From the IMG/VR virus record IMGVR_UViG_3300024268_000012: a stretch of 64,000 nt of DNA; one strand, 5' to 3'. The notes under the pieces were generated by a model. The model was not told the origin of the DNA. It made no database searches and saw only the letters and a list, made by a program, of their open reading frames with translations. Positions 50,369 through 61,787 of this stretch are shown here, piece after piece (position 1 is the first letter of the stretch; every line of letters starts with the position of its first letter). Position numbers and translations under genes: made by a program. Source of the stretch: a virus (taxonomy: Duplodnaviria > Heunggongvirae > Uroviricota > Caudoviricetes).

Positions 50369-50724
50369 TTTAGTGGGAATTGTGACCAGGTATAACCCCT
50401 TTTCTCTTTCAAAATAATTTTTTTCCCGAAAGGGTGCCCGGAGGGTGAATGTTGAATGGATTTACATACCAGAAAAAAATACAAGAGTACTGCCAGCATC
50501 TGGAACGCTCGTCGGGGCGTGCATGGTCGGCACGCCCCGAGTTTGCGCAATAAACCTGTCATGCAACAAAAGCGTCGCGAATGCATTGAATGCATCATGT
50601 TAAGTGTTATCCTAAAACTTAATAAAAAAAATTGTAAAAACCTATTGACAAACGCGGTCAGTTGTAGTATACTATAATCACAGCAAGGGACAAGAGCCCA
50701 GCTGAAAGAAAGGAAGTAACTACA

Positions 50725-51003
50725 ATGATGACTGCTGAAATGCTGATGACCATGCTGGAAACCCTCGAACAGGCTGGCGATGTTGAAATCCGTCGCGAAT
50801 CCGACACTGAAATCTGTGTGGATTTCATCGACTTCATCGGCTTCGATGATGACTGGTGTGAGCAGTTCCGTGACTATACCATGCCTGAGCTGGTTGAGCA
50901 GGTGCAGGACATCATCGACGAGCTGGGCACTGGTGACTTCTACCATGAAGTGGTGCTTGATGGTGTGGGCTTCATGTTCGGTTGTACCTCTTACGACATC
51001 TAA
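50725..51003 (+). CDS. Small acidic hypothetical protein (92 aa)
   Basis: Own promoter (50645), SD GAAAGGAAG, TAA stop. Confidence 0.75.
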   Translation: MMTAEMLMTMLETLEQAGDVEIRRESDTEICVDFIDFIGFDDDWCEQFRDYTMPELVEQVQDIIDELGTGDFYHEVVLDGVGFMFGCTSYDI

Positions 51004-51151
51004 GAGGTCACCGAGCACGGGCCTAGCTAGCCAACAAACAAGAGACACAACAAATAATTAACAAAAATAATCTGTATAAACCTATTGACAAACATCCTGA
51101 AACCTGCTATAATAGGTAGTGTCAAGGGAACAACGAAAGGAGATCAAAGCA

Positions 51152-51460
51152 ATGTTTATCCTCATGAAGTATTCGAAGGTAGAAAGTACTCGCACTCGCA
51201 CCGCCGCACACAGAGTAGGTCTGTTCCGCACTCGCAAAGGTGCAAACAGAGTGATGGCAAGGCTTCTGGAAGCAGAAAAAAAGAAGCCTGTACCTGCCAC
51301 TTTCAAGGTGGAACATGAGTGCTATTACAGTACCCGCGCATTCTGGGATGCTGTTGCACAGATGTACTGGGGTTGGCAGGATCGCCGCTATGCCAAACTG
51401 TTGGCGAAGTTCGACCGCATCCAGCAGAAGCTCGAAGCCATGAGGAGGGCAAGAGGATGA
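51152..51460 (+). CDS. Small basic hypothetical protein (102 aa)
   Basis: Own promoter (51085); ATG after GAAAGGAG. Confidence 0.7.
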   Translation: MFILMKYSKVESTRTRTAAHRVGLFRTRKGANRVMARLLEAEKKKPVPATFKVEHECYYSTRAFWDAVAQMYWGWQDRRYAKLLAKFDRIQQKLEAMRRARG

Positions 51461-51579
51461 ACAGCGCAAGGTTTAAGAAGCTCGTCAAGAGGAAAGAAAA
51501 GCAAGTCTATGCACAGAGGAGGGAAGAGCGATCTTCCCCCTCGAAAAAAAAGATAAAAAAGTTTGCGGAAAAGGCTTGA
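51457..51579 (+). CDS. Short basic peptide (40 aa)
   Basis: ATGA overlap with the previous gene; ends at the TGA inside the next TTGACA box. Confidence 0.4.
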   Translation: MNSARFKKLVKRKEKQVYAQRREERSSPSKKKIKKFAEKA

Positions 51580-51645
51580 CAAATACCCTAAGACGTGCTA
51601 TACTAATAGTGTCGAAAGGGACAAGACAAAACACAGAAAGAGGTA

Positions 51646-52089
51646 ATGAGAATGAAGATCTGGTTCGATATGGATGGTACGATTGCTGACCTGTATGCGG
51701 TTGATGGATGGCTTCAGATGCTCCGAGCTTACGACCCTGCACCCTACGCAATGGCAAAGCCCATGCACCACATGGCAACGCTGGCAAGGATGCTCAACAG
51801 GGCACAGGCACAGGGACACGAACTCTGCATCATCAGCTGGTGTAGCAAGGAAAGCACTCTTGCCTATGATGAAGCAGTCCGAGCCGCCAAGCTCGCATGG
51901 CTCGCCAAGCATCTGCCTTCTGTTCATTGGGATGTGGTGGAGATCGTTCCCTATGGGCAGAACAAGTGGGACACCTGCAAGAGCGGCATTCTCTTCGATG
52001 ATGAAGAGCGCAACCGCAACGCATGGGAACAGGGCAAGGCGTTCACTCCCGAAACTATCTTCGCCACTCTCTCTGCACTCACTCGCTGA
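51646..52089 (+). CDS. HAD-family 5'(3')-deoxyribonucleotidase-like phosphatase (147 aa)
   Basis: IWFDMDGTIAD motif I and ILFDD motif IV; own promoter (51576). Confidence 0.75.
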   Translation: MRMKIWFDMDGTIADLYAVDGWLQMLRAYDPAPYAMAKPMHHMATLARMLNRAQAQGHELCIISWCSKESTLAYDEAVRAAKLAWLAKHLPSVHWDVVEIVPYGQNKWDTCKSGILFDDEERNRNAWEQGKAFTPETIFATLSALTR

Positions 52090-52118
52090 GTGCAGAGAGC
52101 AACAAGAAAGAGAGGTAA

Positions 52119-52358
52119 ATGACTATGGGATTCAGTTATAATAGTTATAATAGTGATAACTCTGGATGCGCGACTGTGATTGCGGCGCTGATTGTGCTGG
52201 CGCTGGTCATCTTCGCTGGGCCATGGGTTGTGCAGATGGGATACAATGCAGTAAAGCTGGACTTCAACCTGCCTGACCTGAACTACTGGCAGTTCTTCTG
52301 GGCTACCAATGCATTGCAGGTTATCTTCAAGACCAATGTTTCCAGTAAGAGCAAGTGA
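52119..52358 (+). CDS. Small membrane protein (79 aa)
   Basis: SD GAGAGG; hydrophobic ATVIAALIVLALVIFAGPW helix. Confidence 0.65.
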   Translation: MTMGFSYNSYNSDNSGCATVIAALIVLALVIFAGPWVVQMGYNAVKLDFNLPDLNYWQFFWATNALQVIFKTNVSSKSK

Positions 52359-59415: not shown

Positions 59416-59515
59416 TGTCAGGTGAGGGAAGCAACTGACAGTCGCTTAGCCAAGGTAGCCTGCGGAGTGGGTGCGCAACACTCCATGGTTAGACCCTGTG
59501 CAAGCGAAGCGAAAA
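59416..59515 (+). ncRNA. Candidate small structured RNA (ORF-less cassette)
   Basis: Between promoters 59382 and 59534 with no SD-led ORF. Nested pairings TCGCTT/AAGCGA, TAGCCA/TGGTTA and GGAGTG/CACTCC. Confidence 0.45.
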
Positions 59516-59607
59516 AAAAGTTTGCGAAACCCCTTGACAAACAACTGAATAGGTGCTATAATAAGAGTGTCCTAAGGGACAAGACAAAAAGAAAGAGGTA
59601 ATGAATC

Positions 59608-60015
59608 ATGATGAAGTTCACTAAGAAGGTTGCTCTGGAAGTCGCTATCAATGCTATCGAGAACTCCACCCTGCCCAACTGGTCTTTCACTGAGGGCGAG
59701 GAAACCCTGACCATCTCCAAAGCGGAAGCCATCGAGAAGCTCCAGAAGATGATTGAGCAGTTGGAGGCTAAGTCCAACGCTCCCAAGAAGCCCACTAAGG
59801 TGCAGGAAGCCAACGAGGGTGTCAAGGACATCATCAAGGCTGTGCTGGAAGGTCAGTCCCCCATGACTGTCTCCGAAATCATGACCCACTCTGCGGAACT
59901 GAGTGCCCTGTCCAACCAGAAGGTCGCCTCTCTGGTGCGCCAGATGGTCGAGGCTGGCGTGCTGGTTCGCACTGAGGAAAAGCGCAAGGCTTTCTTCGCC
60001 CTCGCTCAGGGCTGA
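59608..60015 (+). CDS. Winged-helix DNA-binding protein, paralogue 3 (135 aa)
   Basis: LSNQKVASLVRQMVEAGVLVRTEEKRKAFF; followed by terminator GAGACCCC-GAAA-GGGGTCTC-TTTTT. Confidence 0.75.
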   Translation: MMKFTKKVALEVAINAIENSTLPNWSFTEGEETLTISKAEAIEKLQKMIEQLEAKSNAPKKPTKVQEANEGVKDIIKAVLEGQSPMTVSEIMTHSAELSALSNQKVASLVRQMVEAGVLVRTEEKRKAFFALAQG

Positions 60016-60192
60016 GCCTGAGACCCCGAAAGGGGTCTCTTTTTCTTGGGCTGCTCGCGGACGGGCGCCGCGAGCAGTTTTCCGCGATACACTAGACCCA
60101 CCGAAAAATTTTCTTGAAAAATCGGCATTTTAGGGGTTGACAGATTATCCCGAATCTGATATAATAGAACCATCGAAAGGAGCTGATCTGAA

Positions 60193-60333
60193 ATGTTCAC
60201 CTGTCCTGCACTCTGTATCCTTGGTCTGGTTCTCTCTATGTGGGGATTCATCTGGGGTATCTTCTTCCAGGAATTCCTGTGGCTGTGTGTAGCTGGTTTT
60301 GCGCTGGGCTGGATGTTTTCTAAAGATTGTTGA
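60193..60333 (+). CDS. Small two-helix membrane peptide (46 aa)
   Basis: Own promoter (60137), SD GAAAGGAG. MFTCPALCILGLVLSMWGFIWGIFFQEFLWLCVAGFALGWMFSKDC; below the track length cutoff. Confidence 0.65.
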   Translation: MFTCPALCILGLVLSMWGFIWGIFFQEFLWLCVAGFALGWMFSKDC

Positions 60334-60396
60334 AATTAGGGGTTGACAAACTGCCCCAACTGTGTTATAATAATAATGTCGAAAGGAGCTGATAGC

Positions 60397-60870
60397 ATGG
60401 AGTTCAAGGAAGCTATCAAGGCTTACGCTAAAATGATGGGCGTAAGCGAATCGGAAGCGAAGCAGGATGCCGAAGCTACCATCAAAATGTGGATGACCAC
60501 CGAAGGCATGACAAGGGAATTTGCGGAAGCCAGCTGGATTGAAGAGCAGGAAGATGCAGACCCCGAATTGCTGAAACAGATGGAAAAGCAGGCGAAGGAA
60601 TCTGGCGCAACAAAGGTCAAGGCAAAGCGTGCCCCGAATTACAGTCTGGAAGGACAGAAAAAGCGGGAACGCAAGCCCAACGAAGAAAAGCGTTCACTGA
60701 TTGAACAAATCGCCAATGCAATGGAAAGTTTTCATCACATGGATGAAGAAATTCCTGCTTCTGGTGTGGATTTGGTCGAAATTGTGAATCCTGAACGAGA
60801 AATCACCTTCAAAATTGGTGAAAATTGCTACAGTGTGACCCTTACCTGCCATCGCAAGCCGAAAAAATGA
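60397..60870 (+). CDS. Hypothetical protein, RERKPNE family copy 2 (157 aa)
   Basis: ATG after GAAAGGAG; shares RERKPNE.KR.L and VNPER...F..G..YSVTLT.HR.PK with 53585. Confidence 0.75.
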   Translation: MEFKEAIKAYAKMMGVSESEAKQDAEATIKMWMTTEGMTREFAEASWIEEQEDADPELLKQMEKQAKESGATKVKAKRAPNYSLEGQKKRERKPNEEKRSLIEQIANAMESFHHMDEEIPASGVDLVEIVNPEREITFKIGENCYSVTLTCHRKPKK

Positions 60871-61787
60871 CAAAATGGGCGAGAAATCGCCCATTTTTTG
60901 CTGTTTTTGTCCGGTTTTGTGCGGTTTTACTAGAAAAATCGCATAATTTTTGTTGATTTTGCCTATTGACAAATGCGGCGGGCTGTGGTATAATAATAGA
61001 GGGGAGTTGAGCGGGCCGGTCGCGGGCGATCCGGACCGAATTTCCCGATCGGACCTGTATATGCAAATTTTTCTCTTGAATGCAACTATATGCAACTAAT
61101 TACCTTGAATCCCGAAACCCCGGTCGGGCCCCGCCGATCGGATAACCGATCGGCTATCATATGCGCTCGTGCGCGGTGAAAGCGATTCCTCCAGCGCCTC
61201 ACAAATCAATTCTCTCTGCCCCTCAGCGTAGATCGAACATACCCCGCGCGTTCTCTGGAACATGCATATGCTGCGGAATTTGACAAATTGAATTAAATAT
61301 GATATAATATTTAAAAAAGGCACCTCCGCCGACCGGGAAATTGACAACATAATTTTTTTATGATATAATAAAAGTAGAAGGATATAGGCCGACCGGAAAG
61401 TCGGCAACAAGAGGAAGGAGATTTGACAAATAAACAAATATATGATATAATACGGTGGGGCATATTTTTACCGATCGGTAATAGATCAAGAGGAGCAAGA
61501 GTAAAGAATAGCAAGTGGACGGGCTGGCATATGCGGCATAATATATTGAACTTAATTACGGACACGAGGACGGATAAATGAGTAGAGTAGTCTAGGCCCG
61601 ATCGGGCCACCCCACTTCCAGAATTTTCCCAGTTTTTACAATTTTATCTATCCTCATCTTCTCTCCCTTGATTTTTATAAAAAAATTTGCTATAATATAT
61701 ATGTAAAGAATGAGGGAATCGCTTCGCTCTTCCCTCTATCCAATCCTGGGGTCGCTCCCCAGTGAATATCGAAAGGAGACTCCTTAC

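Follow-up and report, generated by a model that had tools for sequence, protein, structure and literature searches.

Co-varying 27-nt hairpins mark the borders between early gene blocks in a clade of large TAG-recoded gut siphophages

General features

The tailed phage represented by IMG/VR record IMGVR_UViG_3300024268_000012 (Caudoviricetes) carries seven GC-rich hairpins, here termed HP1–HP7, in a 64,000-nt stretch of its genome (the window, to which all coordinates refer unless a locus is named). These hairpins belong to a family of strictly sized stem-loops with freely co-varying arms, and members of this family mark the borders between early gene blocks in a clade of large TAG-recoded gut siphophages. 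In the window, they divide an early island (50–62 kb) into blocks of approximately 2 kb. The structures had been proposed in a reading of the window from its letters alone (hereafter, the sequence-only reading); all seven were confirmed, on the + (gene) strand, and the stem sequences quoted there proved correct. The genome is 168.7 kb in length, linear according to IMG/VR, and 88% complete as estimated by CheckV, and the window represents its reverse strand.

The hairpin family and its covariation

Related loci (46 in total, from IMG/VR phages of 120–200 kb) were collected using one winged-helix protein as bait, and a covariance model was built from the best-conserved copy, i.e. the HP7 type. 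The model gave 132 matches in 878 kb of relatives, approximately 125 of them on the gene strand, and a collection based on anatomy contains 118 distinct copies from the relatives. HP7 represents the 'master' copy, which is present once per phage in most relatives with model scores of 41–57 bits. The element usually measures 27 nt. In the consensus, the left flank T(T/G)GG precedes a lower stem of 7 bp (C-S-G-S-C-C-G) and a 13-nt centre in which positions 8–10 pair with positions 18–20; within this centre, A11 mostly remains unpaired, a C12:G17 pair can form, and positions 13–16 read GGNC, giving the apex ACGGNCG. The right flank is (A/T)ATTT followed by C or G. The apex differs by lineage, being RCGGGCS in the subclade of this phage and AC(G/A)NNNN elsewhere.

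In the window, HP1, HP4, HP5, HP6, and HP7 are 27-nt members; HP2 and HP3 share the 13-nt centre but have longer stems. All seven apexes contain the heptamer RYGRKCS (ACGGGCG, GCGGGCG, GCGGGCC, ATGGTCG, or ACGAGCG), which fits the family apex and agrees with the conserved loop described in the sequence-only reading. The conserved 3' tail was recovered as well: TTCC(C)G[CA] begins no more than approximately 5 nt past six of the seven hairpins, HP1 having GTTTGCGC instead. Over the 11-kb island, the + strand has just 17 occurrences of this motif. The 27-nt class has 5 matches in the island, compared with 0.8 in block shuffles (maximum, 3), and none was found outside 50.5–61.0 kb in a scan of the whole genome.

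As a precaution against circularity, copies for the covariation test were chosen by the invariant positions and the tail alone. This selection returned 65 copies on the + strand and 3 on the - strand. Among the 65 copies, the free pairs 2–26, 4–24, 5–23, and 8–20 are of the Watson–Crick type in 54, 61, 64, and 52 cases, respectively, whereas shuffling gave 23.0 ± 3.6, 27.5 ± 3.8, 26.7 ± 3.5, and 22.4 ± 3.3, and the free stem pairs use all of C-G, G-C, U-A, and A-U. In an ungapped alignment of 66 sequences, the covariation score was 0.523, compared with 0.129 ± 0.014 after shuffling and 0.06–0.10 with slid partners. The co-varying stems that had been claimed are therefore strongly upheld among homologous copies. 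Since the free stem positions co-vary, a folded strand is required, and we rejected a pair of independent half-sites for a dimeric protein binding duplex DNA. Among wobble pairs, G.T is more frequent than A.C at 8–20 and 9–19, and A.C is more frequent than G.T at 10–18. An extra helix between the GG of the left flank and the CC of the tail is not supported (48% of cells paired), and a loop–tail pseudoknot (CGGG with CCCG), which fits some window copies only and not the relatives, was dropped.

The proposal that the element is undescribed also stands, as no Rfam family matched and nothing like it was seen in the literature searched. Over the whole window, Rfam gave 0 matches at the gathering score; at E values up to 5, the only match to a family hairpin was a minus-strand BjrC68 over HP2, with 19.4 bits against a gathering score of 39. 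The hairpin is also present, together with 7–21 consensus promoters per locus, in loci L069, L070, L075, L080, L090, L092, L096, L101, L105, and L109, the contigs of which have been binned into metagenome-assembled genomes (MAGs) of Lachnospiraceae, Clostridia, Treponema, and Mollicutes. This occurrence in unlike bacterial MAGs probably reflects mis-binned phage contigs.

Persistence and compensatory change

In a search for empty sites, the hairpin was removed from each copy and the flanks alone were used as the query. None of several hundred flank-defined comparisons revealed an orthologous site without the hairpin. The flank matches that span the junction in other phages each contain an insert of 25–28 nt, with the exception of one weak match (67% identity) with an 18-nt insert. 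In flank-defined orthologs, substitution amounts to 4.9% in the lower stem, 7.4% in the flanks, and 9.5% in the centre, and double compensatory changes were identified between L011 and L014, L020 and L021, and L034 and L036.

Nine closely related loci (L167–L175), in which the neighbouring 157-aa protein is 78–94% identical, show compensatory changes at the orthologs of HP2, HP3, HP5, HP6, and HP7. At the HP2 site, L173–L175 and L170 carry a 27-nt hairpin with wholly different arms and a like apex and tail. In HP3, a C-G pair has become T-A and the upper helix has been rewritten, with the tail AATTTCCGCGAGGAG unchanged; the same tail stands behind a different stem at L032:9477–9513. The upper stem of HP5 has been swapped with compensation, and its tail alternates between TTTTT and AATTT. 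HP6 shows a compensatory change from T-A to C-G in L170 and has a homolog at L021:9665–9691, and the G.A mismatch of HP7 is a G-C pair in relatives. The HP1 ortholog is kept at L001:794 and in L173–L175.

Promoters around the hairpins

In many relatives, the tail and the sequence behind it (AATTTCGATTATAC-17 nt-TGTCAA) correspond, read in reverse complement, to a perfect sigma-70 promoter that lies on the opposite strand and is aimed into the hairpin; part of the tail conservation is therefore due to promoter ancestry. A survey of promoter geometry over 94 copies in relatives found the -10 box of a backward promoter starting 7–8 nt past the hairpin in 28 copies, that of a forward promoter ending 2–3 nt ahead of it in 29, both promoters in 5, and neither in 32. 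With the forward spacing, the RNA of that promoter would start inside the 5' arm and so escape, and RNA from upstream would carry the whole hairpin; the backward spacing amounts to the layout of a one-way terminator with an antisense promoter. A split promoter joined by cruciform extrusion (-35 box, hairpin, -10 box) was also considered, but the spacers left after removal of the hairpin are 14–18 nt, and this model is unsupported.

In this phage, only HP4 has a backward promoter, HP7 has a conserved forward promoter, and the other five hairpins have no adjacent promoter; five copies have apparently lost the antisense promoter. Throughout the nearest subclade (L001, L019–L021, L032, and L167–L175), the backward promoter is almost wholly absent, and the hairpins are kept right after canonical terminators. 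Because hairpins are retained and compensate without the backward promoter, their function is independent of it. Judged from the sequences compared, the cassette has the hairpin, rather than the promoter, as its core, which is a new point from this window. The HP5 and HP6 tails resemble -10 regions that have decayed (TTTCGCAATACC in this phage versus TTTCGCAATTATACC in L002).

A putative boundary insulator

The best explanation that we can offer, and one that we hold tentatively at somewhat less than even confidence, is that the hairpin may be the stem-loop part of a boundary cassette, similar to the promoter-early stem-loop (PeSL) cassettes of T4-like phages, which would insulate blocks of early transcription. 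The layout of this cassette, like the structure, conservation, strand specificity, and positions of the hairpins, is a matter of observation; as we reconstruct it for the clade, its full form runs from a gene block through an ordinary terminator, a 27-nt GC hairpin with fixed apex and flanks, and an optional antisense consensus promoter into the hairpin to an operator-like TTGTGCA element and the next sense promoter. We infer that the hairpin acts at the RNA level, mainly on sense transcripts that leak past the primary terminator: folding in the nascent RNA, it would stop or stall the polymerase and so form a fail-safe terminator or barrier that is poor in U and probably assisted by a factor, and each block would then be driven by its own promoters alone. 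In the relatives, the head-on promoter may reinforce the barrier.

The positions of the hairpins are as follows. According to the sequence-only reading, they usually follow an ordinary terminator; this holds for HP2–HP6, which lie 3–14 nt past a canonical terminator, and not for HP1 and HP7. The separate canonical terminators before HP2–HP6 also agree with its view that the hairpins are distinct from the primary terminators. The next promoter that it had placed downstream begins, for HP3, HP5, and HP6, with a -35 box exactly 59 nt away, and the TGCA-containing stretch that it had noted is real, consisting of ATGCA boxes after HP1, HP2, and HP7 and TTGTGCA elements after HP4 and HP5. Homology blocks shared with L001, L028, L032, and L037 (BLAST) begin at HP3, HP4, and HP5 and run into the downstream promoter region, and the gene order of the island differs from that of L001. 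Runs of at least four T abutting the stem are more common in copies without a backward promoter (22 of 71) than in copies with one (3 of 47), which fits an insulator role, as does the placing of forward promoters such that their own RNA would begin inside the 5' arm.

Other observations weigh against such a role. A terminator scan flagged none of the seven hairpins, the tails of which are poor U-tracts with 3–5 T (an intrinsic terminator has at least approximately five U in eight), and the alternating tail of HP5 among close relatives indicates that the U-run is not the conserved feature. The folding energy is equal on both strands (mean difference, 0.02 kcal/mol), which favours neither as the acting strand. 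HP7 lies just downstream of its own promoter, 17 nt past the -10 box, and not at a block end. Finally, a plain terminator needs neither a length of exactly 27 nt nor the ACGGNCG apex and the flanks, which suggests a specific reader.

Alternative explanations

A specific reader of the conserved apex and tail is plausible from the pattern of conservation, and the hairpin with its tail may be a sequence- and shape-specific site, on RNA or single-stranded DNA, for a phage or host factor; we regard this as an unlikely but serious alternative to the insulator. Such a factor could serve in antitermination or termination, process RNA as an endoribonuclease, or stabilize RNA, and the placing of the hairpins at block borders would then mark where it has to act. 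The RNA-processing or antitermination signal or protein-loading site suggested in the sequence-only reading could be of this kind. The fixed length, the retention of the apex (bulged A11, C12:G17 pair, and GGNC tetraloop) and of the flanks TGG and AATTT(C)C while the stems vary freely, the lineage-specific apex consensus, the invariance of the 15-nt tail of HP3 while its stem was rewritten, and the extreme strand bias all favour a site of this kind. However, no partner was identified among the early proteins, which are ORFans save for an AbrB/MazE-like protein, a T5orf172 protein, and weakly BlaI-like winged helix-turn-helix (wHTH) paralogues; moreover, the tail conservation partly descends from the -10 region of the antisense promoter, and pairing of the flank with the tail is unsupported. 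A clade-wide hairpin-reading system for termination, antitermination, or RNA processing, which would decide the fate of the polymerase or the transcript at every early-block border by a logic comparable to that of nut/N or of Cas6 with its repeat, is conceivable but doubtful at present.

The promoter survey brings in another explanation, in which non-coding RNAs, antisense and in some cases sense, that are initiated at abutting consensus promoters, as in relatives, would begin with the hairpin as a stabilizing 5'-terminal stem-loop, and the copies kept here would be leftovers of such units. In 62 of the 94 surveyed copies, a promoter is placed for a start at or inside the hairpin edge, HP4 keeps its antisense promoter, and the HP5 and HP6 tails look like former -10 regions. 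We nevertheless consider this improbable: of the seven copies here, five lack an adjacent promoter, as do nearly all of those in L001, L019–L021, and L032, yet these copies are intact, conserved, and compensating, so that the hairpin must function without need of an antisense promoter.

The mosaic early island, with homology blocks that start at hairpins, the wholly different hairpin between conserved flanks at the HP2 ortholog, and the occurrence of GC-rich palindromes inside an AT-rich genome would also be consistent with hairpins that are mainly recombination junctions or selfish palindromes kept by intrastrand templated repair rather than by function, comparable to the shuffling mediated by PeSLs or to the GC clusters in the mitochondrial DNA of yeast. 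That explanation is quite improbable, as the flank-defined comparisons yielded no empty site, copies within the genome are unlike in stem sequence, no transposase or recombinase was found in the genome, and the asymmetric conserved apex and fixed orientation are left unexplained by palindrome self-repair.

The attC-like site suggested in the sequence-only reading was not borne out. The hairpins share with integron attC sites folded from single-stranded DNA their imperfect palindromes with variable centres, their location at the 3' ends of gene units, and their single orientation, but it is highly improbable that they are such sites: the 88%-complete genome gave no match to a tyrosine recombinase (PF00589), for which controls were positive in 14 of 14 genomes, the R''/R' cores (RYYYAAC/GTTRRRY) are absent, and the left flank, T(T/G)GG, is not complementary to the right flank, AATTT. 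Neither empty sites, presence/absence variation, nor mobility was seen, and the separated units are multi-gene and multi-promoter, with promoters of their own, rather than promoterless cassettes.

Several other families were rejected. REP/BIME elements of enterobacteria are GC-rich extragenic palindromes of approximately 30–40 nt that follow genes in specific orientation, with proposed effects on mRNA ends and termination; their copies share sequence within a genome and are moved by the RAYT (Y1) transposase. The hairpins likewise are GC-rich extragenic palindromes after genes, but their stems differ between copies and a Y1 (HUH) transposase (PF01797) gave no match, and REP/REPIN elements with RAYT were dismissed. 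For an N4-type hairpin promoter, which would need a virion or T7-like single-subunit RNA polymerase able to read DNA hairpins, PF00940 was without a match (a weak test, since the control genomes were negative too), the giant open reading frame (ORF) encodes a tape measure protein, and the early genes have sigma-70 promoters. For a CRISPR-repeat mimic (RNA anti-CRISPR), a pattern scan of 596 Gb of genomes returned single matches, never arrays; the matched sequences were either ordinary terminators or phage-like contigs that had been placed in various MAGs. For a lambda-type nut site, HP2–HP6 lie after terminators, only HP7 follows a promoter, and no boxA-like conserved element was seen.

Comparison with known systems

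In function and layout, the closest known kind appears to be the PeSLs of T4-like phages, which are composite terminator/promoter motifs with near-perfect sigma-70 promoters flanking shuffled ORFans (Arbiol et al. 2010, PMC2839356; Comeau et al. 2014, PMC4122927). In both cases, a stem-loop and a near-consensus sigma-70 early promoter are repeated among the small ORFans of plastic early regions and lie at the edges of blocks shuffled between relatives. The PeSL stem-loop itself terminates the preceding gene, whereas the hairpins HP2–HP6 are additional to an ordinary terminator, and PeSLs belong to T4-like myoviruses, whereas the present phage is an unrelated TAG-recoded siphophage with a 3791-aa tape measure protein. 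The fixed length of 27 nt, the conserved apex and flanks, the freely co-varying stems, and the antisense promoter into the hairpin in relatives are further differences.

Tandem (fail-safe) intrinsic terminators are similar in that a canonical terminator is followed within a few bases, on the sense strand, by another GC-rich hairpin whose tail contains T; unlike these, the phage hairpins have only 3–5 T and can switch to AATTT, are conserved in length, apex, and flanks, and include HP7, which follows a promoter. A one-way terminator combined with an antisense promoter is known as a set of synthetic parts that throttle a gene (Brophy and Voigt 2016, PMC4731013), and convergent promoters regulate helD/pps of B. 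subtilis, a system without a hairpin (PMC12802891). Both resemble the relatives, and HP4 here, in having a strong promoter directed backwards into the 3' end of the unit before it, but five of the seven hairpins in this phage have no antisense promoter.

The seven hairpins in the window

The features described below are on the + strand unless otherwise stated. HP1 (50512–50540, with the 27-nt core at 50513–50539) has the apex ATGGTCG and the tail GTTTGCGCA and lies at the left border of the early island; ATGCA boxes follow at 50561, 50581, and 50590. This border region (50490–50600; L001:720–900) contains a conserved AAAAATACAAGAGTACTGCC, HP1, and several ATGCA(T) boxes and is similar to the module at HP7 described below, so that the island is bracketed by two hairpin-plus-box modules.

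The gene block at 50.7–52.36 kb is closed by an ordinary intrinsic terminator (52364–52397) with a 13-bp stem and TTTTCCCTCT. It is followed by HP2 (52411–52447), which has a 12-bp stem, a 13-nt centre with ACGGGCG, and the tail TATTCCCGC (52448–52456). An ordinary terminator (54868–54904; GAGTGGG...CCCACTC and T7) after the gene at 54631–54888 likewise precedes HP3 (54911–54947), which has an imperfect 11/12-bp stem, the apex GCGGGCG, and its 15-nt tail at 54948–54962; the -35 box 59 nt past HP3 belongs to a consensus promoter at 55007–55035.

HP4 (57233–57259) stands behind the ordinary terminator (57201–57229) of an AbrB/MazE-like gene (56931–57209). Its 27 nt comprise 3 bp, a bulged C, 8 bp, and the loop GAGC, and its tail is TTTTCCCGCG (57260–57269); the perfect TTGACA-17-TATAAT promoter aimed into it lies on the - strand at 57279–57307, 19 nt away. 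An operator-like inverted repeat, TGCACAAA-N16-TTTGTGCA with a central TCCCGAAA, follows at 57311–57352, and single TTGTGCA(T/A)TTT elements are found just upstream of -35 boxes, at 59236–59256 and at many promoters in relatives. These TTGTGCA-type elements, which correspond to the TGCA stretch of the sequence-only reading, are a candidate binding site for the winged-helix paralogues.

HP5 (59175–59201) follows an ordinary terminator (59138–59171; tail TTTTCTTTT) and is a canonical 27-nt member, CCGGTCG-13-CGACCGG, with the apex GCGGGCC and the tail TTTTTCCGC; the next -35-like box is the TAGACA at 59261. HP6 (60051–60077), behind the ordinary terminator (60020–60047) of a wHTH gene (59608–60015), is also canonical: an A is bulged out, and a C:G pair closes the GGGC tetraloop (apex ACGGGCG). 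Its tail is TTTTCCGCG, and the next -35 box is at 60137. The promoters at 55007, 59261, and 60137 have TCCCGAA in their spacer.

HP7 (61012–61038; tail AATTTCCCGATCGG), of which only the inner part had been proposed originally, at 61017–61047, is transcribed from a conserved consensus promoter, TTGACAaatgcggc...TGgTATAAT (60966–60994). The conserved non-coding module after it (61039–61170), where the GC-rich early island has its right border, contains three CCGATCGG, three ATATGCA/ATGCA boxes, TCCCGAAA, and CATATGC. The whole region (60966–61170) is the most conserved non-coding module of the clade, with matching sites in L001, L009, L016, L019–L021, L023, L028–L030, L034–L037, L044, and L045 and comprises a promoter, HP7, TTCCGATCGG, 3–4 CATATGC/ATATGCA boxes, TTTCCCGAAA, and further CCGATCGG palindromes. 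It is situated at a drop in GC content and near the minimum of the cumulative GC skew, and several IMG/VR contigs end 0.5–4 kb past it. Possible roles of the module are those of a replication origin, the border of a terminal repeat, or a regulatory hub.

A different-looking hairpin (GGGGCAGGG/CCCTGCCCC; 58057–58080) with the tail ATCTTCCCGA follows a wHTH gene; it has the family tail motif, TTCC(C)G[CA], within approximately 5 nt, but not the 27-nt anatomy. At this gene end and at two others within blocks (53977–54000 and 54516–54546), the hairpins consist of a G-run and a C-run without a U-tract, and CCCGAAAAAAA after them leads into the next promoter's A-rich upstream element.

Genome setting and other features of the early island

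The early island has a GC content of 46–50%, compared with 33–40% over most of the genome, and all of its genes are on the + strand. A promoter scan of 48–64 kb identified 63 sigma-70-like sites, compared with 22.8 ± 4.8 in shuffles, and 21 of these are perfect (12/12) TTGACA-17-TATAAT promoters. The island encodes approximately 20 small proteins, nearly all ORFans; the others are three winged-helix paralogues with weak similarity to BlaI (54141–54509, 57697–58050, and 59608–60015), an AbrB/MazE-like protein, a T5orf172 domain protein, a nucleotidase of the NT5C type, and a DUF2726 protein. A further pair of paralogues, of 134 and 157 aa, is encoded at 53585–53989 and 60397–60870. The island is predicted to be an early region driven by the host polymerase.

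The 3791-aa tape measure protein is encoded on the minus strand at 21326–32698, in an ORF that appears when TAG is read as Gln and that contains 42 in-frame TAG codons. Its identity indicates a very long-tailed siphophage, without sign of a virion RNA polymerase. The neighbouring 1997-aa ORF (15212–21202) has no PHROG match. In profile searches, the genome gave no matches to transposase, integrase, T7-like polymerase, beta subunit, or sigma regions 2 and 4; ARAGORN found nothing, and no close DNA relatives were found in the phage collection searched.

The stretches at 57356–57690 and 59261–59600 are paralogous, each with three successive promoters, the first two of which lead to short ORF-less transcripts (starting AATGTCAGGAGG...), followed by a winged-helix gene. 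On the minus strand, a probable non-coding RNA of approximately 250 nt (52505–52798) has its own perfect promoter (52798–52770) and terminator (52531–52510). Its 3' 90 nt are almost identical in L032, with a diverged 5' half; it contains a tRNA-like T-arm (GACGTTCAAATCGTC), is not called by ARAGORN or Rfam, and folds no more stably than shuffles (z = 0.6). This RNA (52.5–52.77 kb) also holds CCGCCCGCGC, which is complementary to the hairpin apexes and might allow a kissing interaction with them, a post hoc observation concerning a segment that is partly inside a predicted stem.

Significance

The phages concerned are abundant and uncultured members of the gut virome, and their early host take-over regions consist almost wholly of ORFans. 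The regulatory grammar of these regions, i.e. perfect host-type promoters, terminators, strictly sized co-varying hairpins, and optional backward promoters, is among the few parts that can be read from sequence. The hairpin could serve as a compact insulator part in Firmicute synthetic biology, and the more than 100 natural variants, in which the fold, apex, and flanks are kept and the stem is changed, constitute a ready mutational series for hairpin insulation of very strong promoters.

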